A stretch of 64,000 nt of DNA from Syntrophaceae bacterium (GCA_003142295.1 PLLV01000135.1:3795-67794), one strand, 5' to 3'. Shown: positions 2,859-62,421, counted from the stretch's first letter. Notes: a model not told the origin generated them from the sequence alone. Program-made: numbers and translations.

Positions 2859-3086
2859 TTTGAGTCGAGTATACCGGTGGTTTCTCCAGATACTACAGGT
2901 TGTGGTTTGTTTTTTCCGATAACCACCTTGTTTAGCGACGGTGCCACAATATGTCATCCATGTATACATTGGCCCCAAACCTTCACATAGCTGCCCATAC
3001 ATATCATAATTCTCGATGAAACAGCACTAATGATGACGGGTTGAAAACCTGCATATTCATCGAGATTGACGATTTGTGGATAACAG
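2859..3086 (-). promoter_or_regulatory. Copy E of the recurrent promoter/leader cassette (upstream of the radical SAM gene)
   Basis: Minus-strand reading: CTGTTATCCACAAATCGTCAA...TCGATGA, hairpin GGTT/AACC, ATCATT, TTAGTG-16 nt-TATGAT. There is also a leader segment at 2859-2898 shared with copy A. Confidence 0.5.
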
Positions 3087-3300
3087 TCAATAAAGATTAC
3101 TGTTTGAAAGGCTGGATCTCCGTCAGAATTGCCGTATGCTTTGTTACAGAAAGTTATGAGGACTCTCGTTAACCCAGGATGACTCACGCTAAGATTAAGA
3201 CGAGAATGCAAAATTGCCGATGGAAGCACTAAACTAAGTGCTAAGTGGCGGCGCGTAGAGACTGCGGTCAAAACCGAACCGCATGGTTACGCCGCCTGCA

Positions 3301-4494
3301 TCAGTGCCGGGCCATAAGGTGCTGAACCGCCTTTTCCAGGCCGTCCAAAGTCAGTTCGAACATGGGAAAGACCTGGTGGATCATGCCGACAGTAAAGGTG
3401 TGGCGCCAGTCAAGCTCAGGCTGGGGATTGAGCCATACGGAATGGCGAAAGATATTGGCGAGATATTTCAGACGCTCCAGGCCGGTTCCGACCTCCACCT
3501 GGTCGATGTATATCGCCCCGTTCGTGTGGATCAGCTCATAGGGGGCCATACTCGCATCGCCAACGATGATCAGCCGCGTCTCCGGATCCTTGCGGATAAA
3601 CTCTTCAATAGGCTCCGGTTTGTAGCGTCGTTGCGGGTCCTGCCAGACACGGCTGTAAATGGTGTTATGGAAGAAGTAGATTTTCAAATCCTTGAACTGG
3701 CTCCGGGCATAATGGAACAGGGTCTGCACGACTTCGACATAGGGGTCCATGGACCAGCCGCCGTTGTCGATCATGAGGATGATTTTGAGACGGTCCGATA
3801 ACCGACGGTCGAAGATGATCTCGATTTCTCCGGCGTTGCGCATTGTCTCATAGATGGTCTCATCCACATTTACCAGATCTTTTGGACCGGAGGGAATCAT
3901 CCGGCGCAGCCGCTTCAAGGCCTCGCCCATCTGCACCTCTGTCAGGGGGCCTTCCTGGGAATAATCCTTATATCGCCTTTCCATGGCCACTTTGACGGCC
4001 GATTTGTTTCGGGACTGCCCGCCCACGCGCATCCCGCCTGGATGATAGCCTGAATGTCCGACCGGTGAGGTGCCTCCCGTGCCGATCCATCGGTTTCCCC
4101 CGTGATGGGCTTCCGTCTGATCCTTAAGCCGGTCAAGAAAATATTGGATAAGCTCTTCGGGCGTCATCTTTTTCAGTTTTGATTCGTCCAGACCAAGGGC
4201 CTCAGCGATTTGCTCCGGGTTCTTCAGCCATTCTTCCAGTAGCGCCTTCACGATCTCCGTGAGCTCGATCTCTTCCGGCGCCCGCAGGGCAATGCCGCGG
4301 AAGAAATGCGCGAAGACCTGATCATACATATCGAAATAACGCTCGCTCTTTACGAGGATTGCACGGGCGGTCGTGTAAAAATCATCGACGGACTGGATAA
4401 TGCCAAGGCTCAAAGCCTTCTGCAGCCGCAAAAAAGACGTGGGCGACATGGGAAGCCCCCGCTCACGCAGCTTATAAAAGAATTCGATAAACAA
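3301..4494 (-). CDS. VWA-domain protein, CoxE-like (partner of the MoxR ATPase)
   Basis: 397 aa, immediately downstream of the MoxR-type AAA gene with a 12-nt gap. The C-terminal half has a VWA-like MIDAS context (LMIDNGGWSMDP, IIVGDASMAP). Confidence 0.7.
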   Translation of the reverse strand: MFIEFFYKLRERGLPMSPTSFLRLQKALSLGIIQSVDDFYTTARAILVKSERYFDMYDQVFAHFFRGIALRAPEEIELTEIVKALLEEWLKNPEQIAEALGLDESKLKKMTPEELIQYFLDRLKDQTEAHHGGNRWIGTGGTSPVGHSGYHPGGMRVGGQSRNKSAVKVAMERRYKDYSQEGPLTEVQMGEALKRLRRMIPSGPKDLVNVDETIYETMRNAGEIEIIFDRRLSDRLKIILMIDNGGWSMDPYVEVVQTLFHYARSQFKDLKIYFFHNTIYSRVWQDPQRRYKPEPIEEFIRKDPETRLIIVGDASMAPYELIHTNGAIYIDQVEVGTGLERLKYLANIFRHSVWLNPQPELDWRHTFTVGMIHQVFPMFELTLDGLEKAVQHLMARH

Positions 4495-4506
4495 ATCCGG
4501 TTCCTC

Positions 4507-5355
4507 TCAGCGCATCCTCGCCGCCTGCTGGGCGGCAGCAGCCAGATCAGCGCTCTTCTTGAAAAGGATGCCCAAATAGGGCGTGTTTCCCCGGGTGAGC
4601 GATTTCAAATGCATATCGGGGTCCGTCTTCAAGGCGCGAATCCAGTTGATCAGTTCCCGCGTGGCCGGCTTCTTTTCGATCCCCTTGAAATCCCTCAGGC
4701 GGTAGAAGGCCTCGATGCACGCCTCGGAGAGATCCCTGCTGAGATTGGGGAAATGAACACCCACAATGAGCCGCATCGTCCCGACATCGGGAAAGGCGAT
4801 GTGATGAAAATTGCAGCGGCCCAAAAAGGGATCGGAGAGGTCCTTCTTCGCGTTGGATGTAATGATGATCACCGGCCGGTGGCGCGCCGTAACGGTCTTG
4901 TCAATTTCTATGATATCGAACTGCATCTGGTCGAGAACGTCGAGCATGTCGTCCTGAAAATCGCTGTCGGCCTTGTCGATCTCGTCGATTAGCAGCACCG
5001 TCCGCAGGTCCGATACAAAGGCCTGGCCGATTTTCCCCATCCGGATGTATTCCTCGATATTGCTGACATCCCGCTTGGAATCCCCGAAGCGGCTGTCGTT
5101 CAGGCGCGTCAGTGTATCGTATTGATACAGGGCGTCCACAAGCTTCATGCTGGACTTCACGTTCAGCACGATCAGGGGCATCTTCAGGCTTTCGGCAATG
5201 GCGTGGGCGAGCATTGTCTTGCCCGTGCCCGGCTCGCCCTTGAGCAGGAGCGGCATTTCCAGGGCTATGGAGACATTCACAACCTTTGCCAACTCGTCAT
5301 CGAGAATGTATTTGGACCCGCCGCGAAAAGAATTGCTATCTGTGCTCATACACAA
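4507..5355 (-). CDS. MoxR-family AAA+ ATPase (CoxD-like)
   Basis: 282 aa with Walker A GEPGTGKT and Walker B LLIDEIDKA. Size and neighbourhood are typical of MoxR/VWA pairs. Confidence 0.85.
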   Translation of the reverse strand: MCMSTDSNSFRGGSKYILDDELAKVVNVSIALEMPLLLKGEPGTGKTMLAHAIAESLKMPLIVLNVKSSMKLVDALYQYDTLTRLNDSRFGDSKRDVSNIEEYIRMGKIGQAFVSDLRTVLLIDEIDKADSDFQDDMLDVLDQMQFDIIEIDKTVTARHRPVIIITSNAKKDLSDPFLGRCNFHHIAFPDVGTMRLIVGVHFPNLSRDLSEACIEAFYRLRDFKGIEKKPATRELINWIRALKTDPDMHLKSLTRGNTPYLGILFKKSADLAAAAQQAARMR

Positions 5356-5483
5356 ACTCCTTTTATAACTACGACGTTAAACGCCGGATATTTTTTGAAT
5401 CATGCCTTCCTATTTCATCTGTGGAAAAATTACCAGCTTTTTTTCATTAGACACGGTCAATAATGCCTTCATATCTGACCAAA

Positions 5484-6224
5484 TTACCGAAGAGACCTGA
5501 GGATTGCATCCTTTGTCTTTTCCATAGCGGAGAGCTTGACTTCCATGGTCATTGTTGACTCGTAGCCCTTCTCCTTAAGAAGGGTAAATATCCGCCGGTA
5601 GTCCACGGCGCCATCTCCGAGGGGCAGATGGAAGTCATCCTTTGGTGAAGTGCCGCCGCGGTTGTCATGAACATGAACATGCTCTATCCAGGGGAAACAG
5701 TTTTCGATGAAGCCGAAAGATGTGTTCTCCCTGGACAGAAGCTGACCGTGGCCTATGTCCAAAGTCATTTTCAAGTCGGGAACGTTATGAAACATAGGCA
5801 TAAAATTATAATAACGCTCACTGAGATTCTCGATGCATAAAATGACGCCCGCGTTCCTGGCAGAAGCGACCATCTCCGACGCCAACTCGATCTTTCGGGA
5901 GGCCGCTTCGTGCGAAACATACCTTTCGTCCATCCAGAAATGGAATGTTCCCTTCGTGATGCCAAGCGCTCCCGACAGGTCGAAGAGTCTCTTCATGCGG
6001 AGAACAAATCGCTCCTCAAGAATCTTTGCATCAAAGGCGTCATCTTCATTTGGATAATGGGCAATATAGGTGATACCATAAAGGGTCTTCAGTCTTAAGA
6101 GTTCGTCAAGCTCACGCTCGACATCTTCCGGGACATAAAGCGAAATCTCGGCAAAAGGATATCCGAGTTTTCCAACTTCGTGAATCTGTTCTATCGAGTG
6201 AGCTCTCCCGCCGATGATGAACAT
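5484..6224 (-). CDS. Sugar phosphate isomerase/epimerase (xylose-isomerase-like TIM barrel)
   Basis: 246 aa. It carries the metal-ligand style motifs IENL...DIGH...HVHVHDN...H.PLGDG characteristic of the AP_endonuc_2 family. Confidence 0.7.
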   Translation of the reverse strand: MFIIGGRAHSIEQIHEVGKLGYPFAEISLYVPEDVERELDELLRLKTLYGITYIAHYPNEDDAFDAKILEERFVLRMKRLFDLSGALGITKGTFHFWMDERYVSHEAASRKIELASEMVASARNAGVILCIENLSERYYNFMPMFHNVPDLKMTLDIGHGQLLSRENTSFGFIENCFPWIEHVHVHDNRGGTSPKDDFHLPLGDGAVDYRRIFTLLKEKGYESTMTMEVKLSAMEKTKDAILRSLR

Positions 6225-6577
6225 CCTGCATCCACCTGATGCCTTTCTTTAGGATTTGATTTGAATAGACCGGTCCCTCCTGCACGGCAGGTTGAGGTTT
6301 GTATACTCCGGCCATTTCTGGACCGTAGATATATCAAACCTGAGCAGAAGATGCATTTCAATTATTATGGACTATGACAAGCGAACTGTCTCATGCGCCG
6401 CTATCAATTGTCTAAACATAGAGGATTCGGACGATTTTAGGAAATGTAACTTATAGAACGAATTGTCTTGACTTTGTCCAAATTGAGAGTAGTCTAAATA
6501 TAAGACCATGTAATAGACATCACTGAAAAAGTTGATGAGCCCCCTTCCCATATAGAGAAACAAAGAAACTATTAAAG

Positions 6578-6615
6578 CCCTGTCCATTACAATGAGACAG
6601 GGTTTTTTGTTTTTG
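6578..6615 (+). terminator. Orphan intrinsic terminator on the plus strand
   Basis: CCCTGTC-cattacaatga-GACAGGG is followed by TTTTTTGTTTTT. No annotated plus-strand gene ends here. Confidence 0.5.
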
Positions 6616-6624
6616 GGGTGGATA

Positions 6625-6765
6625 AGAATTCAGGGGCATTGAATTCGGTAGCGAGCGCATTCCCCGTAGCTTGCTGCGGGGTAAGCGAGCGAATGACGAA
6701 CGATACTATTCCCTAAGAATCGAAGATTCTCCGCAGCTTGCTGCGGAGAGCTTCAAATTGTACAT
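6625..6765. repeat. Palindromic REP-like elements (GCAGC-AAGCT type)
   Basis: gaattcaggggcattgaattc, ccccgtagcttgctgcgggg and ctccgcagcttgctgcggag. A related copy, ccccgcggcttgccgc, lies at about 60865-60890. Confidence 0.6.
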
Positions 6766-6791
6766 GATATTTATGACAAGGAGGGTACAAA

Positions 6792-7100: not shown

Positions 7101-7119
7101 GTCGAAAAGGATAAAGACC

Positions 7120-7500: not shown

Positions 7501-7584
7501 CTTTTAAAGATATAGTTCTGCGGTCAACACAACTCTCAATGTCCACACCCTCAATCCAATCCCTTGACAAATAATTCTTCAATC

Positions 7585-7683
7585 TGTCATTCCCGCCCCC
7601 GCGCGGAGCCTGCCCTCGAATGTCTTTATCGGGGGGCGGGAATCCGACCACCCCCTGTCATTCCCGCGCAGGCGGGAATCCAG
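7585..7683. repeat. REP family 1 (cattcccgc..gcgggaatcc stem-loops), two units
   Basis: The long unit at 7585-7647 is an inverted copy of the element at 19526-19582 (gagcctgccctcgaatgtc core). The short unit is tgtcattcccgcgcaggcgggaatccag at 7656-7683. Confidence 0.8.
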
Positions 7684-7806
7684 TGTTTTTCCAATCGTTG
7701 AACAAGATGTAATAGTCTTTTCCAAAGTTCCAAGATATAATGCGGTGTGAAACGGGCAATTATCAAAGAGTACTCACTATATCTAAATCATCCGGAGGAA
7801 AGAGAG

Positions 7807-8475: not shown

Positions 8476-8503
8476 TGAAATGAGGACGCTTACATTATTG
8501 TGT

Positions 8504-8650
8504 GCCATTCCCGCATTTCATACTGTCATTCCCGCGGAGGCGGGAATCCAGAATATCTTACTTACCCCTCGTCTCTTGCTCCTTGCATCTTTCACTTTGT
8601 CATTTCGACCCCTTCGTTTACTCAAGGTAAACTCCGGGAGAAATCTTGCT
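8504..8650. repeat. REP family 1 unit plus REP family 2 unit (gtcatttcgacccctt...)
   Basis: tgtcattcccgcggaggcgggaatccag (family 1). tgtcatttcgaccccttcgtttactcaaggtaaactccgggagaaatc (family 2, also seen at 36003-36130 and 14008-14050). Confidence 0.75.
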
Positions 8651-8873
8651 GCCATTTCTAATTGTTTCACCTACAAAAGTCACACTTAGCTGCATCATTG
8701 AGAATCAATGATAACCGTTTGAAAGTTAGCATTGTAGCCCTTATAGAGTGAATATACCTTATTGCCCTGTCCAGTTTTGGGGAAGAGTTAGAACTGCATT
8801 TTTCCCGCCTTTTCAAATAGGCACAACCTGTTCTTTTATCGTTCTGAAGACATTGGTTATTCCTGGAGCATCC

Positions 8874-12126: not shown

Positions 12127-13524
12127 TCACATCGGTCCTCTGTACCTGAATGCTCTTCTGAATCCTTGCTCTTCTGCCTCTTTTACAGTTGCGCAGTAAA
12201 ATTCGCCACGCTTGCTATCAATTGTTGTGCGGTCATATTGCTGGTCGAACGGCAGGTGGTAAATCTTGGTGCCGTCCTTCCAAGAGACGTTACATTTGAT
12301 GCAGGGGTAGTTCTGATCCAATTTGAAGTTCTCGTACAGTTCTATTTCTAATTGACTGGAGAATCGTCTAGCCAAGTCGGACAACTCTGTCGCGGTGTAG
12401 AAGAGCGCCCTGACCGTATGGTGGGGATTGGCATCGCGATATTGAAAAACTGTTCCGAAGAACTGGAAAATATGCTTTTCGTAAATGGTACGGAATTGTG
12501 ACCAGTTCTTGCACTGGATAATGAGAAACTCACCATCTTTCTTGCAGATCAAATCACGACCCAAGTCCTCAAATCCTTTGAAGATGCCAACGTATTCGAC
12601 ATCATACCCATCTCTTTCGTAAAGGTATCCGACATACCGCTCGTAGATGCGGCCTATCAACCACTTTGACTTCGACCTATTCCAAAAGCGATTCATAGCG
12701 AGTTGGTTTCGCTCAGCCGTAGACAGTTTACGATATTCTTCTTTGGTCAGGAATCCGGTAACGGCATCTTCGATTTCCTCCTCAGAATATTCATCTAAGA
12801 GGTTACGCCCCTGCTTCTCCGCATCGTCCACTTCTTCTTTTAAATCCACTAGGAACGGGGCGATATACTCGTAGTATTCAATCAAGTATTCGGCTCTTTT
12901 TGCTCTCCGTTCTGCGTCTCTCCTCAATTTCGAGTATTGTTTTACAATTTCCGCCGCTTTGAAGGCAGGCTGTGCTTTCTTGTGGAGGTAGTTGATCAAG
13001 CCTTGCTCCTGCAACGCGAAATACTCGTCATACGCTTTTGCCAGCCACGGGAATCCCAGTTGCCTCTCCTTAGCCATCTGCAAGACTGCTTCTTTGTCCC
13101 TCTGTAGTTCACCAAGCGTTTGCCTCTCAAATGATTCAAAGCTCTGCCCATGGTCAGAACGCTTCAGGTAATTGATGGAGTGTTCAAGGCTAACTTTCTG
13201 CTCCTGAATCAGCAACAGAAGGTCTTCAAGCTCTTTTTTTTTGGTTTCGTAGTAACCCACGTTCAGATGTCCTTTATAATACAAATGGGCAATGAGGGGA
13301 TTGACTGCATCGGAGGAATTGTCCGCGATACCTGCTTCGTCTTGGTACAAGCACACATCCACAGAGCGGGCATGTGGTGTACCCCTGAGGAGCAAGGCGT
13401 CTTGCAAGGGACAGAATGTTCTTACGCTCTCTATCTGTGTCAAAATCATCAAGCACTTCGTGGGCCGCGCGATCCCTAATACGTTGGAGGTACCGATTGA
13501 TGTGCCCTGCGACATAAATGACAC
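12127..13524 (-). CDS. Mrr-type (Mrr_cat) restriction endonuclease-fold protein with a long coiled-coil region; the 5' limit is uncertain
   Basis: GRIYERYVGYLYERDGYDVEY...GRDLICKKDGEFLIIQCKNW matches the Mrr_cat D-(x)n-QxK core. The C-terminal KIYHLPFDQQYDRTTI...GEFYCATVKEAEEQGFRRA resembles the HxPGxxYY-type tail of nuclease-associated proteins. The first roughly 70 codons of the ORF overlap the zinc-ribbon ORF and look non-coding. Confidence 0.7.
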   Translation of the reverse strand: MSFMSQGTSIGTSNVLGIARPTKCLMILTQIESVRTFCPLQDALLLRGTPHARSVDVCLYQDEAGIADNSSDAVNPLIAHLYYKGHLNVGYYETKKKELEDLLLLIQEQKVSLEHSINYLKRSDHGQSFESFERQTLGELQRDKEAVLQMAKERQLGFPWLAKAYDEYFALQEQGLINYLHKKAQPAFKAAEIVKQYSKLRRDAERRAKRAEYLIEYYEYIAPFLVDLKEEVDDAEKQGRNLLDEYSEEEIEDAVTGFLTKEEYRKLSTAERNQLAMNRFWNRSKSKWLIGRIYERYVGYLYERDGYDVEYVGIFKGFEDLGRDLICKKDGEFLIIQCKNWSQFRTIYEKHIFQFFGTVFQYRDANPHHTVRALFYTATELSDLARRFSSQLEIELYENFKLDQNYPCIKCNVSWKDGTKIYHLPFDQQYDRTTIDSKRGEFYCATVKEAEEQGFRRAFRYRGPM

Positions 13525-13558: not shown

Positions 13559-13591
13559 TGATCGTCACCTTGCGGGATATACCCGCATTTG

Positions 13592-13741
13592 TTTGAGTCG
13601 AGGATGCCAGTATCTCTCGATACTATAGTTTGACGTTGATTTGTATTGTCCATAACATAATTATCGAGGAAATAAAATCAATGATAACGGATTGTAATCC
13701 CGTATCCTCGTCGAGGAGGACTATTTGTGGCCAACAGGAAG
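13592..13741 (-). promoter_or_regulatory. Copy A of the recurrent promoter/leader cassette (upstream of the zinc-ribbon/Mrr locus)
   Basis: Minus-strand reading: CTTCCTGTTGGCCACAAATAGTC..CTCGACGAGGAT, hairpin GGATT/AATCC, ATCATTGATT, TTGATT-16 nt-TATGTT. The leader TTTGAGTCGAG..GATACTATAG at 13592-13628 is shared with copy E. Confidence 0.55.
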
Positions 13742-13842
13742 AAATAATCCGCATTTTTTATTTTCTTTTCGAACTCTATAATTCAAGATAATTGCCGCAT
13801 TTTTCATCCTTATCATTGTGCTATTCAGGTATTGGTAAGAGG

Positions 13843-14220
13843 ACTGGTTTCCCGATCAGGTCGGGAATGACGGCGGGAAGGTTTACGTCTTAAAAAGAGA
13901 CTGGATTCCCGCTTGCGCGGGAATGACAGTGAAGACACGGGAATGATAAAATCGAGGAAAGCAGCGCAGTGTACACAACACCTTGCGTCAGTTTTTTCTT
14001 GATAAGATTTCTCCCTTCGGTCGAAATGACATGGGGGGATTGTCGAAATGATAAGGAGGGGTGATTCAACTGACAATGGTGAATGTGTGTTGTTGAAAAT
14101 AGAGACTGGCTTCCCGATCAGAGCCCGGAATGACAGAAAATTAAGTCTGATACGGTAAAGATCAAAAACTGGATTCCCGCCTGCGCGGGAATGACATTAG
14201 AGATAAGGGAATGAAAGAGG
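13843..14220. repeat. Array of about 8 REP units (families 1 and 2, mixed orientation)
   Basis: ggtttcccgatcaggtcgggaatgac, ggattcccgcttgcgcgggaatgac, ttctcccttcggtcgaaatgac, gtcgaaatgat, ggcttcccgatcagagcccggaatgac, ggattcccgcctgcgcgggaatgac. Confidence 0.8.
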
Positions 14221-14239
14221 AGAGGGGGAAATGGAGAAG

Positions 14240-15732: not shown

Positions 15733-16751
15733 CAGGTACCTGCCTTCTTTTCACGCCAGAGCCTGCTTGCGAGCATGTCGCGCACAGGCACAAACCAGCG
15801 AAATTCCCGGAGTCCCATAATGCCTTTGGGCCGGTAGATCATCAGCAATACCAGTACGAGGGGCATGAAGACCATGCGCCAGATTCCCATGGGACGCAAG
15901 ACCTCTAATAATACCGTGTATACCGTAGCCCCGATGACGGAGCCGGCAATGGAGCCTATGCCTCCGAGATACACCATTATCAGAATGTCCGTTGATTTAA
16001 TTATATCAAAGGCGCGGGGGTTGATGAACTGCAGCAGGTGCGCAAAGAGTCCGCCTGCAATTCCAGCAAAGAAAGAAGAAACTGTAAAGGCGAGGACCTT
16101 TACATGATTCGTATTTACGCTCATCAGGTCGCTTGCCACCTCATCCTCACGGATCGAAAGGACACCCCTGCCGAAATTTGAGTATATCAGATTGCGTATG
16201 ACCCACACGGAAAGGAGAACCCAGAAGAATACCCAGGGAAGGGTAGAGAGCTTCTCCATGCCGAGAAAACCGCGCGGCCCGCCCAGGGCATCGATATTTT
16301 CAATGACGGACTTGACGATCATGCCGAAGGCGAGTGTGACGATGGCAAGATAGTCGCCCCTTGTTTTGAAGGATGGAAATGCGACAACCAGGCCGACAAC
16401 GCCTGCGGCCGCTCCGCCCGCGATGACAGCCACGGGAAATAACCATGCTGCCATATGTGCGGGAAAAACCTTTACGGTAAGAAAGGAAGCGACATACGCG
16501 CCGATGGCCATGAATCCCGCATGCCCCACGGAAAACTCTCCCATGTAGCCGTTTATAAGGTTGAGGCTCAATGTCAGGATGATATTGATACCTACGTACA
16601 TGATGATAAGCTGAACATAAGGATCGAGAAGCTCGAACTGCTGAATGACAAGGGAGAGCGCAAAGACGGAGATCATAATGGCCGGCAACAGCCAGCGCTT
16701 CGTCTCCAGCTTCTCCATAAATTGTTTTATGCGTGATGTGTTTATCATCAT
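15732..16751 (-). CDS. livM: Branched-chain amino acid ABC transporter permease LivM
   Basis: 339 aa, polytopic, in the usual operon position between livH and livG. Confidence 0.85.
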   Translation of the reverse strand: MMINTSRIKQFMEKLETKRWLLPAIMISVFALSLVIQQFELLDPYVQLIIMYVGINIILTLSLNLINGYMGEFSVGHAGFMAIGAYVASFLTVKVFPAHMAAWLFPVAVIAGGAAAGVVGLVVAFPSFKTRGDYLAIVTLAFGMIVKSVIENIDALGGPRGFLGMEKLSTLPWVFFWVLLSVWVIRNLIYSNFGRGVLSIREDEVASDLMSVNTNHVKVLAFTVSSFFAGIAGGLFAHLLQFINPRAFDIIKSTDILIMVYLGGIGSIAGSVIGATVYTVLLEVLRPMGIWRMVFMPLVLVLLMIYRPKGIMGLREFRWFVPVRDMLASRLWREKKAGT

Positions 16752-16756
16752 CTCTT

Positions 16757-16846
16757 GCTCACCCCCTTTTTGAAAGGGGGTCGGGGGGATTTTCTTTCCA
16801 TTCCTGTTGAAAAATCCCTCTCAATCTCCCTTTGCAAAAGGGAGAA
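16757..16846. repeat. REP family 3 (CCCCCTTT-loop-AAAGGGGG / CTCCCTTT-loop-AAAGGGAG) inside the liv operon
   Basis: cacccccttttttgaaagggggt and tctccctttgcaaaagggaga lie in the 103-nt livH-livM spacer. Confidence 0.8.
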
Positions 16847-17730: not shown

Positions 17731-17772
17731 TTAATTAGTGATGAAATGGATTTTATCTCTTTCTCACCCCCT

Positions 17773-17836
17773 TTGAAAAAGGGGGATCTGTAAGGAGAAA
17801 ACTATCTCCCTTTACAAAAGGGAGACTTATTAAGCC
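17773..17836. repeat. REP family 3, two units
   Basis: caccccctttgaaaaaggggga and tctccctttacaaaagggaga lie between the substrate-binding gene and livH. Confidence 0.8.
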
Positions 17837-19482: not shown

Positions 19483-19525
19483 GCGCCTGTAATATCTCAG
19501 CTTATTATGAAAATAGATTTTAAAA

Positions 19526-19582
19526 TGTCATTCCCGACCCCCGATAAGGACATTCGAGGGCAGGCTCTGATCGGGAATCCAG
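19526..19582. repeat. REP family 1, long unit
   Basis: tgtcattcccgacccccgataaggacattcgagggcaggctctgatcgggaatccag, an inverted copy of 7585-7647. Confidence 0.8.
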
Positions 19583-21723: not shown

Positions 21724-22730
21724 AGAAGAGGATAATCATCATAGTTTTTGTGGTTCTCCTTGTAGGTGTTGGCTCCCTGGTCTATTTTGGACAGTGGCAG
21801 TCCCAGCGAGGTGAACTTTATTATTCCGGGACGATTGAGGCAACTAATTCCAATCTCGCCTTCCAGGTAAGTGGACGCGTCATCAACGTGGCTGTCAGGG
21901 AAGGCTATGACGTCAAAAAGGATCAACTCCTTGCCGAGCTCGATCCCACTGAATTTCAGTCAAAGAAAGAGCAGGCACAGGCAAATCATGATCGGTCGAT
22001 CAATACACGGGATCAGATGGCCACAATGCTTAACATATACAAAAGCACCCTTCCTGCCGATGTGGTGAGGGCGGAGACAAATGTCACAAGCGCGCGAGAC
22101 GTCATGGATGATGCCCGGAAGAATTATCAGCGATACGAGCAATTATTCAAGAGAGGTGTTGTTACGGAAAAGGAAAGGGACTCCGTAAAGCTCGGCTATG
22201 ATACGGCTAAATCCAGGCTTGATGATATGGAAGCCGCCCTGAGACAGGCGAAGAGCAATCTGAAAAGGATTGAAGCAACGGAGAAGGAAATAGAGGCAGC
22301 CGTTTCCCAGATCAGACAGGCCAAAGCGGCTCGCGAACAGTCCGACATTCAATTGCAATATACCCGGTTACTCGCCCCCTACAACGGGATCATCACGAGC
22401 CGTAACGTTGAACCCGGAGAAGTGGTGAGCCCCGGCCGCGAGGTTCTGACCATGGCCGATCTGTCCACCGTGGATCTCAAGATATTCGTGGATGAGACGG
22501 AGATCGGAAAGGTGAAACCGGGACAGGATGTGGACGTGAAAATCGATACCTTTCCCAATAAGGTTTACAAAGGGAAGGTAACATTTATCTCACCTGAAGG
22601 TGAATTTACCCCTAAGATCATCCAGACCAAAAAAGAAAGGGTGAAACTGGTGTACCTCGTGAAGGTCTCCATTCCTAATCCTTCTTTCGAACTGAAGTCC
22701 GGCATGCCGGCGGACGCCTGGCTGCGATGA
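21720..22730 (+). CDS. HlyD-family membrane fusion protein (YbhG-like)
   Basis: 336 aa with an N-terminal TM helix, a coiled-coil hairpin and a C-terminal beta-barrel (LKSGMPADAWL). It overlaps the tolC-like stop. Confidence 0.9.
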   Translation: MKKRIIIIVFVVLLVGVGSLVYFGQWQSQRGELYYSGTIEATNSNLAFQVSGRVINVAVREGYDVKKDQLLAELDPTEFQSKKEQAQANHDRSINTRDQMATMLNIYKSTLPADVVRAETNVTSARDVMDDARKNYQRYEQLFKRGVVTEKERDSVKLGYDTAKSRLDDMEAALRQAKSNLKRIEATEKEIEAAVSQIRQAKAAREQSDIQLQYTRLLAPYNGIITSRNVEPGEVVSPGREVLTMADLSTVDLKIFVDETEIGKVKPGQDVDVKIDTFPNKVYKGKVTFISPEGEFTPKIIQTKKERVKLVYLVKVSIPNPSFELKSGMPADAWLR

Positions 22731-22860
22731 AAATCCCTCCCAACCTCCCTTTTAGAAAGGGAGGAGTTGATGCATCCACTCTTTGAAAAAAGCGGATTGA
22801 GGGGGATTTCTCAATGGGGATTTTCAAGTCTCCCCGGCTCCCTTTTTAAGAGGGAAGAAT
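22731..22860. repeat. REP family 3 cluster inside the efflux operon
   Basis: cctcccttttagaaagggagg, ctctttgaaaaaagcgg, ggggatttctcaatgggga and ggctccctttttaagagggaag lie in the 144-nt spacer between the hlyD-like gene and the first ABC ATPase gene. Confidence 0.75.
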
Positions 22861-34958: not shown

Positions 34959-35287
34959 TGATTCTAAGATATATCTTGTGGTCTTAAACTAAGGAGTATT
35001 ATAGATGGATACTACCCCAATTTCTTCTTACCCATTGATTGGCGAGTTCTGCATGCGAAAACGGGATACAACATTGTGCGGTAGTTTACATCGTGATAAA
35101 AAATAAATCATTATAAATCTTATATAATACCATTCATGGGGAGATTGCATCAAACACGAACGTCCGATTCTGGTTAACCTGACAGCTCATGCGGCAATTA
35201 ATGATTCCCAAAGATCGAACGGTTCGTGTATGGATTGACGGAAGAAGAGATAAGTATTGTCGAATGCAGATAGAATAAGAGAAACGC

Positions 35288-54283: not shown

Positions 54284-54973
54284 TTATGATTCTTCCTCAA
54301 TTGGATTTTTAATGAAATCTAAAAATAACTTACCAATTTCCGTTGTGCGATGGCTAATAACGCCACTATCCGATCTTTGAGTAGTAATAAGTGATCTTGA
54401 AGATAAATCCTTCCAAATGAAATCGAAGAAGCCTTTTTCTCTCAATTCGGAAAATTCGCTTCCGAGAGGGTCAATTCTGCTTATACAATTGTCAGCAGAA
54501 TTTCCCTTTTGCGTCTCACTATATGTTACTTGAACCTTGAAATATTCAATTGTTTTTAAATGCCAAACAGACAAAGTATCTATAAAAGACAAGAATAATT
54601 GTTGGAGAGATTCTTCCGGTGGATTAGGTAGTGCTGAATTTAGAATTGCACTTTTTAATGCCTCACGTTTTTCACGATTAATTGTTTTTATTGCAATCCG
54701 GGTAGCTTCTATTGCCGTGTCGATGAATCCATCGTTTTCCTGAAGCGATTCAAGCACTACTCCCATTTTTTCTTCAAGAGTTCCAAGTCCCATTCCAATC
54801 TCTTCCATCCATTGATTGCGTCTTTTCTCAAGAGATGGTGTAACGATTAACTTCAATAATTCTCCTGCAGCCGCACCAGCATAAGGAATGGCTCCTAGGC
54901 CAGCACGCGTCATTGCATGAATAACATCGCCAGCATCGAGCTCAGGTGGTTTGTATTTTTCTGACTTATTCAT
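54284..54973 (-). CDS. Hypothetical protein (229 aa), upstream partner of the HEPN gene
   Basis: Same strand, with a 76-nt gap to the HEPN gene and promoter cassette copy B upstream. It is helical and has no catalytic motif I recognise. Confidence 0.55.
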   Translation of the reverse strand: MNKSEKYKPPELDAGDVIHAMTRAGLGAIPYAGAAAGELLKLIVTPSLEKRRNQWMEEIGMGLGTLEEKMGVVLESLQENDGFIDTAIEATRIAIKTINREKREALKSAILNSALPNPPEESLQQLFLSFIDTLSVWHLKTIEYFKVQVTYSETQKGNSADNCISRIDPLGSEFSELREKGFFDFIWKDLSSRSLITTQRSDSGVISHRTTEIGKLFLDFIKNPIEEES

Positions 54974-55076: not shown

Positions 55077-55166
55077 ATATCATAATTTTGAAGAAATTAA
55101 CATCAATGATAACTGATTGAAATCCTGAATCTTCGTCGATCCAGTAGTTTTACTGACTTCAGGAAG
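55077..55166 (-). promoter_or_regulatory. Copy B of the recurrent promoter cassette (upstream of the 229-aa/HEPN pair)
   Basis: Minus-strand reading: CTTCCTGAAG...TCGACGAAGAT, hairpin, ATCATTGATG, TTGATG-16 nt-TATGAT. Confidence 0.55.
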
Positions 55167-55189: not shown

Positions 55190-55223
55190 TTCAAAATAAG
55201 AAAAGGTGGGAGTTGTTCCCACC
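55190..55223 (-). terminator. Intrinsic terminator of the HU gene
   Basis: On the minus strand, GGTGGGA-acaac-TCCCACC is followed by TTTTCTTATTTTG, 48 nt after the hup stop. Confidence 0.7.
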
Positions 55224-55270
55224 CTCTCTTGTGTAATAGTGTGACTATTTGCAGTTTATTATAACTATAA

Positions 55271-56259: not shown

Positions 56260-56278
56260 ATCATGATCTCCTTTATCA

Positions 56279-56647: not shown

Positions 56648-56678
56648 AGGGATAACTCCCATCTCATTAGTTATTTTT

Positions 56679-59627
56679 TTAAATATCCGTTTGAAGGGGG
56701 AACCTGACATAAAAAGAAGCGCCCCCCCACTCATTGTTCTCCGCCCAGATCATGCCTCCGTGATCATGGACGATGCCGTACGATATGGAAAGCCCCAGTC
56801 CCGTTCCTTTTCCCTGTCCCTTGGTGGTAAAAAACGGATCAAAGATTTTCGACATATGTTCACTCTTGATACCCGTGCCGGTGTCGGCGATTGTTATTTT
56901 CAGTTGATCGTGATCCCCGAACACCGTTTCCTTCTCCGTTGTTATGCGCAACACTTTTTTCTCTTTCCCCTCCATGGCGGCCAAGGCGTTTGTAATCAGG
57001 TTCAGAATAACCTGCTCTATCTTTTCTCTGTCCATGGCGATTGCCGGCAAATCCGACTGGTATTGCACCTCTATTTCTACTCCCTCTATCTTCAACTGCG
57101 TTGCGTATAAAGTCAGAACATGGGCGATGACACCGTTGATATCGGCCGTGATCATCTTTTTTTCGGAGATGCGGGAAAACTGTTTGAGATTTTCCGCAAT
57201 GATGACGATGCGGCTGATTTGGGCCATGCAGACCTCTAATTCTTCCAGCACTTCGGGTGAGGGGTTTTCCATAGTCTGCAATATCTGCAATTCCAAGGAG
57301 ATGATACTCACGGGATTGAGGATCTCGTGGGCAACCCCGGCGGATAATCGACCCATGGACGCGAGCTTTTCCGACTGGAGCAACTGGTCTCTTGCATTTT
57401 GCAGGTCTCTTTCCACCTGATTCTTCTCGGTTACATCCTGCACGATCCCGACTATCCTGACGATCTTGCCGGTGTCATCAATGATGGGTTCCAGCAGTTG
57501 ACGGACGTCACACACCGCGCCGTCACACCGGACGATGCGATGTTCTATTTCGCTCGTTGCTCCTTCATGCATGGCTTTTTCAACGGCTTTTTTTACCATC
57601 TCTCTGTCCTCGGGAAAAACCAGCTCGGAGAAGGCTTCATAGGTTCCGTCAAACATCTGAGGCGTGGCCGCCCCTACGATCCGGGAAATCTCGTCGGAGC
57701 AGTACATGTCATCGCTTTCGATATTCCATTCCCAGTTTCCGATGTGGGCAATTCGCTGGGCCTCCGCCAAACTCAGATTGCTTTTCTTGAGAGATTCTTC
57801 TATCCGCTTCCGGTCCGTGAGATCGATGATGGCACCCCTCAATCCCACGGGCTTCCCTTCGCGGATGACGACGCTTGGAAAGATCAGAAACGGAAAGGTG
57901 CTGCCGTCTTTTCGAAGCCCCGTGTACTCAGATGGACCCTTCCATTCCCCATTCAACAGCCTCTGAATGTTCCCTGCCAGTTTTTCCTGATCATCTGGTA
58001 TAATCATCTGAAATCCATTCAGACTTTTTTCGAAATCGGGTTGCGTATATCCGAAGGTTTCGAAGATGGCGGGATTTGCGGAAGTGACATTGCCCTGAAT
58101 GTCGGTTTCGAACAACGAAATCGGCAGGAAATCGACCAGCTCCCTGTATTTTTTTTCGCTCTCTGCCAGCGTCTCCTCTATCCGTTTGCGTTCAGTGATG
58201 TCCCTTACAACGGCTGTTACACCAAGAATTTTACCCTCCCGAATAATTGGCGTACCAGTTACTTCCCCGATTTTTCTTGTCCCATCCTTTGCAATAAATT
58301 CATAAACCGCGCCCTTGACCTCCACACCTGAAAGGACTTGTATGACATCAGAGACTGCTCTCGTAAGGGATTCTAAAGTCAGGATATTTAAATCTTGGAT
58401 AGGCCTGTTGATCACTTCTTCGACTTTGTAGCCCAATTGTCTCTCGACACTTGGAGTTATACTTGAAATATTAAAATTACGATCGATTGTAAAGATGCCA
58501 TCAGAAGTGCTTTCAAAGGCTAACAGATATTTTTCTTCGCTCTCCCGCAGCGCCTCCTCCGCCCGCTTGCGCGCAGTGATGTCCCTGGCCACCGCCTGAA
58601 AACCGATGTTTTTATCATCCTTTGACAACAATTGAGCATTTTGCCCGATCCATTTTGTTGACCCATCCTGGACGATGATGGGGAACTCAAAGTATGTGCT
58701 CGGGATTTGCTCATCGTATTGCTTTTTGTAAAAAGCTTCGATCTCATCATGAAAGTCGGGTCGTACAAAGATAAGATAATGTTTCCCCACGATTTCCGAC
58801 CTGGGCCATCCCATGATGCGCTCGGCGACGGGATTCGCATAGGTGAAATAGCCCTTGAGATTAATTGAATAAATAATATCGCTGCTGTTTTCGACGAAGA
58901 GCCGGTATTTCTTTTCGCTCTCGATTAAAGCCTTCTCCGTCTGCTTGTGCTCACCCGTCTGGGTTTCGAGATCCTGGTTGGCGGTCTCAAGTTGCGCGGT
59001 TCTCCCAACAATTCCTGCCTCCAGATCTTCATTGAGTCTGAAGATATCCTTTTCGATCCCCTCTCGTTCGGCGTTTTCTTCCTGCAGCTGATCGTTGATC
59101 GCTTCCAGTTTTTCATTGGTCTCTTTCAGTGCCATTTCAGCCCGGCGTGAGTCCCGGATGAAAACGAAAAATACCCCCATGTCCATGGACAATGCGAGCA
59201 ATAGAATCAGACAGGTCTTTTTCAACAGTGGCCGCAGAGACTGATAAATTTCAAGTTTTCCTACAACAACCCCCGCATGCATTATGTCGGAGGATCGCAT
59301 GATAAGCGGTGATTCCAGATTGTCCGAGCTTTCAGCGACGATTTCATTTTTTGTGTTCACAACGCGCCGCGTTTCTGCATGTTCTGTACTCGGACGCTTG
59401 GAAAGATATTCCATGAGTCTGACGCGTTCGAATTGCCAGTACTTGGGATTTGTAACGACAATTTGCGTCATTATTCGTGAATTGATTTCCGCTTCACTTT
59501 CGAGGGTTCCTATCATATTTTGATAGGAAAGAAGAAAATAGCCGGTGAGAAGGAGGATCACGATGGTTCCGATCACCATTGCGAGAAGCCGAATAATAAA
59601 TTTCGATATGTTTTTGTTGTTTGGCAT
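56679..59627 (-). CDS. Multi-PAS sensor histidine kinase
   Basis: 982 aa with an N-terminal TM sensor region, a coiled coil, at least 4 PAS/PAC units (repeated VARDITARKRAEEAL-type junctions), the HisKA H-box SAGVAHEILNP and HATPase N/G boxes (NLITNA, DTGTGI, GKGTGLGLS). Confidence 0.9.
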   Translation of the reverse strand: MPNNKNISKFIIRLLAMVIGTIVILLLTGYFLLSYQNMIGTLESEAEINSRIMTQIVVTNPKYWQFERVRLMEYLSKRPSTEHAETRRVVNTKNEIVAESSDNLESPLIMRSSDIMHAGVVVGKLEIYQSLRPLLKKTCLILLLALSMDMGVFFVFIRDSRRAEMALKETNEKLEAINDQLQEENAEREGIEKDIFRLNEDLEAGIVGRTAQLETANQDLETQTGEHKQTEKALIESEKKYRLFVENSSDIIYSINLKGYFTYANPVAERIMGWPRSEIVGKHYLIFVRPDFHDEIEAFYKKQYDEQIPSTYFEFPIIVQDGSTKWIGQNAQLLSKDDKNIGFQAVARDITARKRAEEALRESEEKYLLAFESTSDGIFTIDRNFNISSITPSVERQLGYKVEEVINRPIQDLNILTLESLTRAVSDVIQVLSGVEVKGAVYEFIAKDGTRKIGEVTGTPIIREGKILGVTAVVRDITERKRIEETLAESEKKYRELVDFLPISLFETDIQGNVTSANPAIFETFGYTQPDFEKSLNGFQMIIPDDQEKLAGNIQRLLNGEWKGPSEYTGLRKDGSTFPFLIFPSVVIREGKPVGLRGAIIDLTDRKRIEESLKKSNLSLAEAQRIAHIGNWEWNIESDDMYCSDEISRIVGAATPQMFDGTYEAFSELVFPEDREMVKKAVEKAMHEGATSEIEHRIVRCDGAVCDVRQLLEPIIDDTGKIVRIVGIVQDVTEKNQVERDLQNARDQLLQSEKLASMGRLSAGVAHEILNPVSIISLELQILQTMENPSPEVLEELEVCMAQISRIVIIAENLKQFSRISEKKMITADINGVIAHVLTLYATQLKIEGVEIEVQYQSDLPAIAMDREKIEQVILNLITNALAAMEGKEKKVLRITTEKETVFGDHDQLKITIADTGTGIKSEHMSKIFDPFFTTKGQGKGTGLGLSISYGIVHDHGGMIWAENNEWGGASFYVRFPLQTDI

Positions 59628-59807
59628 ATTTGTTCAGTTTGCCGGTCTGCCAAAACATTCTCGTTCTTAATTATTTTCACCAGTACTTTTCAAAGCCGGA
59701 AAAAATGAATTAATGTTTTTTATAGTGTAAGGTTAGGATAGGAGCCAGGGGAAGGCAGGTCAATATAGAATAATATGTGACGAAATATATAGATAAAATC
59801 TATATTA

Positions 59808-60674
59808 CTATAGAGACAGAAGACAGGAACGAAGATTGGGTTCCCTCTTTTTTAAACCAAGTTTTTTTCTGATGCTATTCCGGTGTGTGTTCACGGTCCC
59901 TACGGTAACACACAGCAGTTTAGCGATATTTTTTGACGTCATGCCTCCTTTGACCATACTGGCCACTCGGATCTCCGTAGGGGTTAACTTCTTGTAGTTG
60001 GATGATATGTTGTTTAAAAAGGGGGAAACAATGTCTTTAAGATTCGATTCGAGAACGTTTAAATAGCATTTACCTCTTTCATCCAGATTATAGTTTTGCA
60101 ACTCCCTGATATAGGGGAGCACGAGTTCATTGATGTTTTGCTGCAGCTTTGCTTCCAGGTTCTTCAGATCTTCCCCCCGGCGTTTCAAGAAAACCCGAAG
60201 GGCGGTATTGGCTTCCTCAAGTTGCGCCGATCGCCGAGTCAGCTCTTCCTCCATTTGTTTAAGGGTGTTCTGGGCATGTTTGCGTTCGGTTATATCGTGA
60301 TTGATGCTGAGAACCAATTTTTCACCACGGACATCGATGCGTTCCGCTGAATAGATGCCCATCCGGATATCGCCGGATTTCGTCCGGTATTCGACCCTCT
60401 CATTATAAATAGCGCCTTTTGTTTTCAGAGACTGACAGATTCTTTCATAATTTTCCCGACTCAGAATGTTTAGTTCCGGAATGCTTCGCCCGACGATTTC
60501 TTCACGGGAGTAACCCGTAAAACGGATGAATCGGTGATTGACATCAAGAAACACATGGTCCTCAAACCTGTTGATAGCCATGAGGGACGGGCTCATAAAA
60601 AATATTCTTGACAAGAGTATATTTATTTTGTCCCGTTCCAATATTTCTATTTGTAATGCCTCACTGCTCTTCAT
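59808..60674 (-). CDS. PAS-domain LuxR/GerE-family transcriptional regulator
   Basis: 288 aa with an N-terminal PAS domain, a coiled coil and the C-terminal HTH LTPTEIRVASMVKGGMTSKNIAKLLCVTVGTVNTHRNSIRKKLGL. Confidence 0.85.
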   Translation of the reverse strand: MKSSEALQIEILERDKINILLSRIFFMSPSLMAINRFEDHVFLDVNHRFIRFTGYSREEIVGRSIPELNILSRENYERICQSLKTKGAIYNERVEYRTKSGDIRMGIYSAERIDVRGEKLVLSINHDITERKHAQNTLKQMEEELTRRSAQLEEANTALRVFLKRRGEDLKNLEAKLQQNINELVLPYIRELQNYNLDERGKCYLNVLESNLKDIVSPFLNNISSNYKKLTPTEIRVASMVKGGMTSKNIAKLLCVTVGTVNTHRNSIRKKLGLKKREPNLRSCLLSL

Positions 60675-60960
60675 CCGTTCCTCCAGCCTTTCCAGCCACG
60701 CTTTCCCATATCCTCCTTTGCCTGCTGCATCATATTAGTAGTATATATAAGTTTTTGCTACGGTAGGCGACCCAAAAGCGTGGCGCCCCATTCTGTCTCC
60801 GGCTTCTGTCCGTATTTTACCACAAATATGTCAAATTATCGTAACGGATTCTTAGCAAAATCCTTTGCAGAATACCCCGCGGCTTGCCGCATGAAGCTTC
60901 GCTGTTAAAATTTAACAGCCCAATAGGGATTTTGCTGTGACGGGCGACACCAAACGTAGC

Positions 60961-61045
60961 ATTTTAAAATAAATTTTCACATAAATGATTCCGGTTTTCA
61001 AACCCGCATCTTCGTTGATGTTGACGATTTGTGGATAACAGGAAG
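60961..61045 (-). promoter_or_regulatory. Copy D of the recurrent cassette (about 300 nt upstream of the PAS-LuxR gene)
   Basis: Minus-strand reading: CTTCCTGTTATCCACAAATCGTCAACATCAACGAAGAT, hairpin GGTTT/AAACC, ATCATTTATG. The 21-nt block TTGACGATTTGTGGATAACAG is identical to copy E. The -10 is less clear. Confidence 0.45.
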
Positions 61046-61281
61046 ACAGTTATTTTTGTCTTGTGCGGAAAAATAAACGGTTCAGGCTTGTAAGTTTCAA
61101 CTCGCATTCAATGATATCGTCTGGTGGTCTCGCTTCCTGCTTTGTATTTGCAATTGATAGAGCGTGATAAGTAAAAATGAAATGTGCCGGTAATTGGTGT
61201 CACATACTTATCAATGATTTTTATATTGGAATTGGAGTAATGATTACCATTTGTAATCAGTTTTAGAGTAACATTACTGTA

Positions 61282-62304
61282 TCAACGACAGCGTCCCTCG
61301 CCTTTAGCGATGTCTAACGCTTTGCATTTTCCCAACTCACACGCCTTTTGAGCATCATGGCAGCCCAGCTTGTTGTTGCCCTGAAGAAAATAAGCAATCC
61401 CCCTGTTGCTGTAGGCTTCGGCTAAATCAGGTTGTAAGCGGATAGCTTCATTATAATCTTCGATGGCTCGCTGATACTGGTCAAGTTTACCGTATGCATT
61501 CCCTCTGTTGTAGTATGCCATGTAATCTTTCGTCTGTAGGCGGATAGCTTTATTATAGTCTTCTATGGCACGCTGATACTGGCCAAGGCGAGTGTAAATA
61601 GCACCCCTGTTGCAGTAAGCCTCGGCATAATCCGGCTTCAGGTGGATGACTTCATTAAAGTCTTCGATGGCCCGCTGATGCTGGCCAAGGCCATAGTAAA
61701 CAACCCCTCGGTTGTAATAGGCCTCGGCATAATCCGGTTTCAAGCGGATTGCTTCATTAAAGACTTCAATGGCGCGTTGATACTGGCCGAGGTCATAGTA
61801 GGCCTTACCCCGGTTTTTATAGGCCTCAGCCAAGTCCGTCTTTAGGCGATTGGCTTCATTATAATCTGCGATTGCGCGCTGCTTTTGTCCAAGCTTATCG
61901 TAAGCATATCCCCGGTTGATGTAGGCATTGGCATAATTCGGTTTCAGCCGGATAGCTTCATTATAGTCCTCAATGGCACGTTGATACTGCCCAAGGGCAG
62001 CGTAAGTATATCCCCGGTTGCTATAGGCCATGGCATCATTCGGTTTCAGCCGGATGACCTGATTATAGTCTTCAATGGCACGTTGATATTGGCCGAGGTT
62101 AAAGTAACCATTCCCCCGGTTGCCGTAGGCGTCGGCATAATCTGGTTGCAGTTTAATGGCATTGTTCAAATATTCGATAGCCTTTTCTGGATCGTTATAT
62201 TTTAATTCGTCAGCCTTATTAAACCATTCGACTGCCGTTTCACACATTGCCGGGGTACAAAGAAATGTTAAAACAAGAAAGATGGGAAAAATAATTTTGC
62301 GCAT
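61282..62304 (-). CDS. Secreted TPR-repeat protein (9 near-identical 34-aa repeats)
   Basis: 340 aa with a signal peptide. The unit QYQRAIEDYNEAIRLKPDYAEAY.NRG occurs 9 times, followed by a Cys-rich C-terminus (CHDAQKACELGKC...GRC). Confidence 0.85.
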   Translation of the reverse strand: MRKIIFPIFLVLTFLCTPAMCETAVEWFNKADELKYNDPEKAIEYLNNAIKLQPDYADAYGNRGNGYFNLGQYQRAIEDYNQVIRLKPNDAMAYSNRGYTYAALGQYQRAIEDYNEAIRLKPNYANAYINRGYAYDKLGQKQRAIADYNEANRLKTDLAEAYKNRGKAYYDLGQYQRAIEVFNEAIRLKPDYAEAYYNRGVVYYGLGQHQRAIEDFNEVIHLKPDYAEAYCNRGAIYTRLGQYQRAIEDYNKAIRLQTKDYMAYYNRGNAYGKLDQYQRAIEDYNEAIRLQPDLAEAYSNRGIAYFLQGNNKLGCHDAQKACELGKCKALDIAKGEGRCR

Positions 62305-62327
62305 ATCCGCTCCTTTTATATTTTTAA

Positions 62328-62421
62328 ATTATCATCATAGTTATCGAGAAAATAATATTAATGATTACTAGTCGACGTCCGGCATTTTCGTCGAGACTGG
62401 ATGGTTGAGTAGTTCAGGAAG
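62328..62421 (-). promoter_or_regulatory. Copy C of the recurrent promoter cassette (upstream of the TPR gene)
   Basis: Minus-strand reading: CTTCCTGAAC...TCTCGACGAAAAT...ATCATTAATA, TTAATA-16 nt-TATGAT. The -10 lies 30 nt upstream of the ATG at 62304. Confidence 0.55.

Follow-up and report, generated by a model that had tools for sequence, protein, structure and literature searches.

Dispersed, modular promoter-like cassettes in front of unrelated genes in Syntrophales

The Cassette Family and Its Copies in the Window

The stretch of DNA analyzed here, hereafter the window, comprises 64,000 nucleotides (nt) of a contig from a peat metagenome assigned to a Syntrophaceae bacterium (GCA_003142295.1 PLLV01000135.1:3795-67794). 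It contains five copies of an intergenic cassette belonging to a dispersed repeat family that is located upstream of unrelated genes, in the same orientation as these genes, in genomes of Syntrophales. The cassette is built of a conserved upstream module (L), a module with sigma-70-like hexamers (P) and an optional leader. The reading that we favor, with some reserve, is that it represents an old, lineage-restricted, modular family of promoter and 5'-untranslated region (5'-UTR) cassettes in Syntrophales (Syntrophaceae and Smithellaceae relatives), of the class known as putative mobile promoters.

An earlier note on this DNA, made from the sequence alone, had described such a cassette, and all five copies were recovered on the minus strand, practically where it had placed them: E (3001-3090), A (13652-13745), B (55077-55166), D (60956-61045), and C (62332-62421). 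Anchored on ATCATT, they align without gaps over about 90 nt and share the order CTTCCTG, about 20 nt, TC(G/A)A(C/T)GA..AT, GG..T.CAA, ATCATT, a -35-like hexamer overlapping the end of ATCATT, 16 nt, and TATGAT or TATGTT. The 16-nt spacing holds in all five copies, the -10 hexamer of copy D being degenerate (AATGCT). A repeat search united the copies in one family (63-nt copies with 60-81% identity), and nhmmer run on the window alone recovered them with E-values of 1e-19 to 1e-32. The degenerate 35-nt pattern TCRAYGANNATNNNGGNNNNNNANNNNNNATCATT matches all five exactly, while shuffled sequences gave 0.27 matches at up to three mismatches. The 21-mer CTGTTATCCACAAATCGTCAA, reported as identical in D and E, is indeed common to both.

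Module L of copy E (TTGACTG...ATCATT) spans positions 3029-3090 and is followed by module P at 3001-3030, with TTAGTG at 3030-3025, the 16-nt spacer and TATGAT at 3008-3003. The full-length leader behind it (2856-3003; nhmmer E-value 3e-40) ends at CTCGACTCAA (2869-2860), 43 nt ahead of the ATG (2817) of a B12-radical SAM gene. Copy A consists of L at 13680-13745 (CTTCCTG 13741-13735, ATCATT 13685-13680), P at 13652-13681 (TTGATT 13681-13676, 16-nt spacer, TATGTT 13659-13654) and a 3' remnant of the leader at 13589-13641 (E-value 2e-7), reading AGTATC-GAGA-GATACT and then CCTCGACTCAAA, upstream of the gene 12127-13524, in which Pfam recognizes an Mrr domain. The leader said to be common to A and E is real: it belongs to a leader family that is longer (130-150 nt) and represents its 3' end, with E containing the leader in full and A its last ~50 nt.

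The remaining three copies have no leader. Copy B contains L and P (CTTCCTG 55166-55160, ATCATT 55110-55105, TTGATG 55106-55101, TATGAT 55084-55079) upstream of the open reading frame (ORF) 54284-54973; a hairpin resembling an intrinsic terminator is located about 40 nt upstream of this copy, at 55205-55223. Copy D, which precedes the PAS-LuxR gene 59808-60674 by about 280 nt, has an intact L (61045-60984) and a degenerate P (TTTATG, 16 nt, AATGCT). Copy C, with both L and P (CTTCCTG 62421-62415, ATCATT 62365-62360, TTAATA 62361-62356, TATGAT 62339-62334), is located 30 nt upstream of the ATG (62304) of a gene for a TPR protein.

The Family Beyond the Window

Pattern scans and profile searches revealed 52 non-redundant copies outside the window, mostly in metagenome-assembled genomes (MAGs) of Syntrophales, Smithella and Syntrophus and in peat and sediment metagenomes. 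The first pattern, applied to species-representative genomes, was too loose (34 bits), and most of its 116 loci were chance matches, from which members were separated by flank scoring. About 17 of these loci have flanks matching the window copies, and nearly all of them belong to MAGs of Syntrophales, Smithellaceae, Syntrophus or "delta proteobacterium"; the few members in bins labeled otherwise are taken to be mis-binned short contigs. The stricter 41-bit pattern, run on metagenome contigs, yielded 31 loci, all 31 being true members. No match was found by blastn against annotated plasmids and phages, and five pattern matches in viral contigs were dismissed, none of them scoring as a family member. 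The searches made here revealed no earlier description of this L/P/leader sequence family.

The window copies are 52-71% identical to each other over 93 nt, and each is 70-85% identical to some copy in another genome. Copies within a genome are thus no more alike than copies from different genomes, and there has been neither a recent burst nor homogenization within genomes. At locus L061 the element is located directly upstream of a gene whose product has about 60-63% amino-acid identity to the window TPR protein over the aligned stretches; as these contain repeats, orthology of the two genes is likely but not certain. The retention of the element in front of this homologue, together with the lack of a recent burst, indicates that the family is old and has been retained.

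In three peat metagenomes the summed depth of DNA contigs over L was 10-50 times the local depth of unique sequence, which suggests tens of copies per genome equivalent, a rough figure since relatives contribute to the depth. For 17 of the 52 copies the contig begins no more than 480 nt away, which is what one would expect if the repeat interrupts assembly.

Modular Organization

Module L is about 66 nt long, from CTTCCTG to ATCATTGA, with sharp borders at CTTCCTG and ATCATTG(A). Its near-invariant positions are spread along the module (TC.A.GAA.AT.C.GG..T.CAA....T.ATCATT.AT), and some are invariant across genomes. The 5' part of L in copies E (3071-3083) and D (61026-61038), both on the minus strand, contains the perfect DnaA-box-like 9-mer TTATCCACA, which by a hand count occurs in about one-third of the family members; the other copies retain only (T)CCACAA in its place.

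Module P (TTGATG, 16 nt, TATGAT) follows L in 33 of the 49 copies scored. In these 33 copies the consensus bases occur T32 T33 G26 A30 T32 G23 times in the first hexamer and T29 A27 T29 G32 A27 T29 times in the second one, with exact TTGATG in 16 copies, exact TATGAT in 24, and the 16-nt spacing fixed, within the 16-18 nt usual for sigma-70-type hexamers. A promoter scan picks up copies B and C. In nine copies L stands alone, homology ending right after ATCATTG(A), where other sequence begins. Some of these have, by reading, a different promoter-like site: TTGACT, 17 nt and TATAGT at locus L075, and a common TTGACA module at loci L140 and L150.

The leader, found in at least 17 copies, reads ...TGTGAGGGGCTGGGGCCAACGGATACATGGTTGAAATACTGTGGCACCGCCGGGAAACCAGGCGGTAAACGGAGAAAACAAACATCAACCTGTAGTATCGGGAGAAACCGGTCTACTCGACTCAAA and stops sharply at CTCGACTCAA, often a few bases before a ribosome-binding site of the AGGAG type. 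Fragments of the leader alone occur behind other upstream sequences. The forms observed are L alone, L with P, L with P and leader, leader alone, and a tandem in which a degenerate module, L', precedes L.

This tandem is seen in the window directly upstream of copy E, where L' occupies positions 3089-3152 on the minus strand (E-value 0.0065). Its subfamily is abundant in peat DNA, with a summed depth of 115-160 and 8-12 contigs per run; in RNA contigs its representation is 4-8 times below that of L. Among the loci fetched, L' was found only on other contigs of the same E locus. Two further traces, like L' absent from the earlier note, are a leader-only fragment (6254-6310, minus strand; 3' part of the leader without L or P; E-value 6e-7), located directly upstream of the gene 5484-6224 labeled AP_endonuc_2 by Pfam, and a very weak, doubtful L-like remnant upstream of D (61201-61258, minus strand; E-value 0.09). 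Of two partial copies proposed previously, one is real, if weak: at 8701-8730 on the minus strand the core TTCAA...TTATCATTGAT is followed by inverted TCAATGAT (E-value 0.004-0.008). The profile search detected nothing at the other (35200-35245).

Two observations concern rearranged forms elsewhere. At locus L152 (oriented positions ~2430-2560) the leader stops early at GGTCTAGGAAC and is followed by a sequence in which GGTGCAAGTCC and further features may point to a resemblance to a cobalamin riboswitch. A paralogue of copy A, seen in DNA runs X1 and X2 (joint 13699 to 13652), is represented by a 650-nt contig with two successive P/3'-L segments 30 nt apart, so tandem duplication of the module occurs elsewhere in the community.

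Genes Adjacent to the Cassette

In all 45 copies that could be judged an ORF follows on the same strand, at a distance of 20 to about 570 nt, and none of them lies within a gene or is antisense to the one downstream. An all-against-all BLASTP comparison revealed no homology between the downstream proteins apart from orthologous loci. Their functions, assigned by Pfam for the window genes and by our own reading of the sequences for other loci, include components of type I and Mrr restriction systems, transporters of the MFS, DedA, and AzlC families, a PstS-like protein, M24 peptidase, formamidase, HMG-CoA reductase, dehydrogenases, GNATs, a caspase-like protein, an SPFH protein, and sensors with PAS, GGDEF, and kinase domains. 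The proposal of the earlier note, a dispersed, orientation-locked, promoter-like cassette in front of unrelated genes, is thus borne out by the 52 additional copies. Its link to accessory and defense-like genes does not extend to the family, which also precedes peptidases, transporters, HMG-CoA reductase, and sensors.

The upstream neighbor is co-directional in 27 of 35 cases (~80%) and divergent in up to eight. The occurrence of divergent neighbors indicates that the element goes with the downstream gene rather than with the upstream one.

RNA Structure and Transcripts

The earlier note had regarded the arms of a short hairpin in L as remaining complementary across copies, and saw in this a hint of a structured RNA or of a hairpin-binding protein. 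Neither the complementarity nor the hint derived from it was upheld. In 47 copies the arms pair no more than in shuffled sequences (pair -13/-6 is formed in 18 of 47 copies against 17.9 expected), T-to-C changes at L position -12 are never compensated at -7, and covariation was found neither in the L hairpin nor in the leader. Conservation thus concerns the sequence GGA(T/C)TTCAA and no stem. No fold is common to the L and P modules of the five window copies, and in four of the five these modules are no more stable than shuffled sequences, with z-scores near zero; the fold of copy E alone beats the shuffled controls, owing to its private inverted repeat TCTCGATGAA/TTCATCGAGA.

For the leader consensus, a possible fold is a long rod with several G-U pairs and an inner hairpin CCGCCGG-GAAA-CC(A)GGCGG, and minimum free energy (MFE) z-scores of leaders are mixed, ranging from -2.95 to +0.44. 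The structures tried on 13 leader sequences, two hand-built hairpins and the full MFE rod, did not surpass the shuffled sets, 86 of 500 and 327 of 500 shuffles reaching the observed percentage of pairing. The consensus pairs are formed in 77-82% of cells, with compensatory change no greater than in the shuffled sets, and the RNAalifold consensus amounted to -2.4 kcal/mol, that is, almost nothing; with only 13 leaders the power of these covariation tests is limited. The whole window gave no match to Rfam 15 at the gathering thresholds, and region 2780-3120 produced only noise at E-values up to 10. A search for tRNA and tmRNA genes found none.

The available RNA data are assembled, unstranded metatranscriptome contigs from the same peat study, possibly with DNA carry-over. 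In three metatranscriptomes, RNA contigs with L and P of paralogous copies reach a depth comparable to that in DNA contigs. With copy E as a probe, RNA contigs cover L relatively better than L', P or the leader when DNA is taken as the reference. With copy A as a probe, the RNA/DNA ratio is 0-0.3 for L, about 0.5 for P, and above 2.5 for the 40 nt downstream of P.

Other Features of the Window

The window has a G+C content of 47% and, according to a Pfam scan of its ORFs, represents ordinary chromosome, with pyrG, moaC, and genes for NAPRTase, a Liv-type ABC transporter, and a class A penicillin-binding protein. Proteins named Syntrophaceae, Smithella, and Syntrophus share 83-87% identity with its PyrG. 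Accessory genes are scattered among these, encoding an Eco57I-like type IIG restriction-modification enzyme, an Mrr-domain protein, PAS kinases, and TPR proteins. The type IIG enzyme (29580-32657, plus strand) is a fused protein of 1025 amino acids (aa) with HSDR_N, Eco57I/N6_Mtase, and TaqI_C domains, and has no L/P cassette in front of it.

The TPR gene downstream of copy C (61282-62304, minus strand) contains at least six tandem 102-nt units at 61391-62200, each coding for a 34-aa TPR pair, with 69-74% identity. Its homologue at locus L061 is longer (603 aa), so the number of repeats varies. Between copies B and D, the gene 56679-59627 encodes a histidine kinase for which, besides itself, no orthologue above ~69% identity (with partial coverage) was present among 5.8 billion proteins; for want of a close orthologue, the cassette-richest part of the window, with B, D, and C (54-64 kb), looks strain-specific.

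A second repeat family, unrelated to the cassette, consists of short palindromes (C)TGTCATTCCCGC....GCGGGAATCCAG at 7578-7683, 8517-8551, 13900-13957, 14168-14225, and 19519-19541, which resemble dRS3/REP-like units of the ATTCCC-N8-GGGAAT kind. These palindromes explain the very high summed depth observed in places in DNA and RNA contigs (up to 280 in run X22). G+C-rich hairpins CTCCCTTT..AAAGGGAG at 16750-16844, 17752-17824, and 22730-22763, where the Liv-type ABC transporter and efflux genes end, look like a small family of terminator hairpins. An ORF of 122 aa (1157-1525, minus strand) overlapping the 3' end of the radical SAM gene has only a Zn_Tnp_IS91 zinc-binding domain with no Y2 transposase domain after it, and is probably either a fragment of an IS91-family element or a stand-alone small protein.

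Comparison with Known Systems

Pneumococcal BOX elements (boxA, boxB, boxC), ERIC, and Correia elements are short modules that occur in intergenic regions near gene starts, can carry or affect promoters and are transcribed. The cassette resembles the BOX type in its intergenic location near gene starts and in having modules in a fixed order, each of them optional. Unlike these repeats, it has no terminal inverted repeats, no duplication of TA or another target, and no supported RNA structure, and it is strictly co-oriented with the downstream gene. Inspection of the consensus shows that its termini, CTTCCTG... and ...CTCGACTCAA or ...TATGATATG, do not form inverted repeats, and no target-site duplications were found in the 18 copies with a recognized 3' end; the 8-nt repeat AAATGCGG flanking copy A, considered as a target duplication, did not recur elsewhere. 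A MITE (a miniature transposable element with inverted repeats) or an element of the Correia type was rejected on these grounds.

Integron attC arrays likewise comprise co-oriented repeats between unrelated genes, and the spacing of copies C and D equals one gene (1376 nt). The other spacings are 6-41 kb, the repeats are located at the 5' side of genes and include a promoter motif, and the cassette has neither RYYYAAC/GTTRRRY core sites (GTTATCC in the consensus does not fit GTTRRRY on inspection) nor an imperfect palindrome with extrahelical bases. With no integrase among the approximately 30 window ORFs scanned, attC was discarded. Several other candidates were set aside by inspection only: a sigma-54 promoter (TGGCAC in the leader has no -12 element), an RfaH ops site (GGCGGTAA falls in a variable stretch), and Fur and FNR/CRP boxes, dif/Xer sites, and a T7-like promoter.

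As with composite operator-promoter regulons, in which upstream activating sequences are joined to promoters, one module of the cassette is found before several different downstream sequences, and dyad-like features are present at or beside the -35 hexamer (TCAA-N10-TTGA and ATCA-T-TGAT). It differs from such regulons in that about 66 bp are conserved instead of the usual site of 14-20 bp, and in that the genes have no common theme.

Putative mobile promoters, surveyed by Matus-Garcia, Nijveen and van Passel (2012) and summarized in PMC3575422, are highly similar non-coding sequences (80% identity or more across 50 nt or more) in front of genes that are not homologous to each other in one genome. 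They are sometimes present in several taxa, are mobilized by a mechanism not known and mostly have no Rfam match; the survey dealt with complete genomes available in 2011, and the summary also names Correia, ERIC, and REPIN. Copies A and B, with 81% identity across 63 nt, exceed this threshold, and there are no paralogues among the downstream genes. Most cassette pairs are more diverged (52-71%), the cassette is clearly modular, and its hosts are uncultured Syntrophales. The family conforms to the operational definition of putative mobile promoters, and is not attC, a MITE or a known RNA family.

Possible Function and Alternative Explanations

If the cassette is a promoter and 5'-UTR unit, P would start transcription of the downstream gene, L would serve as a detachable upstream platform for one or several lineage-specific DNA-binding proteins, bringing unrelated genes under common control, and the leader would add a common 5' UTR. 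The modules would have spread by duplication and recombination, with truncation, over a long time, and not by recent transposition. The occurrence of L before different sequences, some with promoter-like sites of their own, fits a shared operator or upstream activating sequence. The earlier note had offered a mobile promoter and a common regulon as two readings; these data do not separate them, and the two are not exclusive.

Several points weigh against this interpretation. The conservation of P is almost uniform, including the spacer, and fits common descent as well as promoter function, and chance alone often produces single sigma-70-like matches (24 found versus 14.7 expected in 7.7 kb). 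For the radical SAM gene, homologues with 89% and ~60% identity occur in other contexts, where the 10 kb to either side contain no element; the cassette therefore does not go with particular genes. The main weakness is that the RNA contigs with L and P run into unrelated sequence on both sides, meaning that transcription at least occasionally covers these modules, as read-through or with a start farther upstream, or else that DNA is present in the libraries.

The same contigs are the principal argument for regarding the whole cassette as a transcribed intergenic or 5'-UTR RNA element that acts post-transcriptionally, for instance in processing, stability, translation control or factor binding, the hexamers being incidental. 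Their DNA-like depth in three metatranscriptomes, the rod with G-U pairs predicted for the leader (z-scores down to -2.95), and the ~80% of co-directional upstream neighbors, which make read-through plausible, are all in keeping with it. We consider it a serious but less likely rival, given that none of the structures tested, in 13 leaders and in the L hairpin of 47 copies, shows covariation, that L and P fold no better than shuffled sequence in four of five window copies while leader z-scores reach +0.44, and that Rfam offers no match even at E-values up to 10. Copies with a divergent upstream neighbor leave just 30-290 nt for another promoter, and contigs without strand information may include DNA. 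A decaying non-autonomous mobile or recombining intergenic repeat of the BOX, ERIC, or Correia kind, devoid of any regulatory role and oriented merely because only such insertions are tolerated, would account for the 5'- and 3'-truncated forms, the tandem L', the duplicated P/L segment of the paralogue, the tens of copies per genome equivalent, the 17 of 52 copies at contig starts, the fairly uniform conservation of P, and the missing element near radical SAM homologues in relatives. It would leave unexplained why no terminal inverted repeats or target-site duplications are seen, why no copy among 45 is located in a gene or antisense to the downstream one, and why individual L positions are invariant across genomes. 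The element in front of the diverged TPR homologue, a likely orthologue, and the absence of a recent burst, copies within a genome being no more alike than those between genomes, also speak against it; there is no associated transposase, the 122-aa Zn_Tnp_IS91 ORF being the only IS-related one nearby. We judge this explanation improbable.

A further possibility is that L is a remnant or live piece of a protein-coding sequence, namely a small ORF located either on the strand of the element (...SCYPQIVNLDEDAGFQSVIID...) or on the other strand (...NDYGLKSCIFVEVDDLWITGR...); it was examined because of a 3-nt periodicity in the 39-nt core of L. In its favor, conservation in the core is highest at second codon positions, several of the variable sites would be synonymous when read in the reverse frame, and an in-frame ATG opens a 43-aa ORF in copy A. 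Analysis of stops, starts, and a dN/dS-like ratio in six frames led to its rejection, and we regard it as scarcely credible. Every frame is interrupted by stops in some of the 46 copies (4 to 32 stops within the 39-nt core and 28 to 65 across the entire element), a usable start is missing from most copies, and many of the synonymous sites do not vary. The periodicity does not extend beyond the core, and the best frame (reverse strand, ...NDYGLKSCIFVEVDDLW...) has a ratio of just 0.37-0.6. On the functional side, the preferred reading of a promoter and 5'-UTR cassette could be carried further. L might be the binding platform of a Syntrophales-specific global regulator which, with the leader, wires dozens of unrelated genes of restriction or defense, signaling, transport, and metabolism into one stimulon, with modules exchanged between promoters; or the leader might represent a new generic class of 5'-UTR riboregulators. 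Either extension appears speculative and rather improbable.

Even as a mere decaying repeat the family would matter, since it breaks assemblies, as the position of 17 of the 52 copies at contig starts illustrates. If the cassette is a working promoter with a common operator, it would be a case of regulatory DNA that serves one unrelated gene after another as a portable part, in a syntrophic lineage that is uncultured and important for carbon turnover and methane formation in peat. Profiles of L, P, and the leader would then provide a sequence handle for defining the regulon directly from metagenomes and a route to its cognate regulator, and the cassettes would be candidate native promoters and 5' UTRs for the genetics of Syntrophales.

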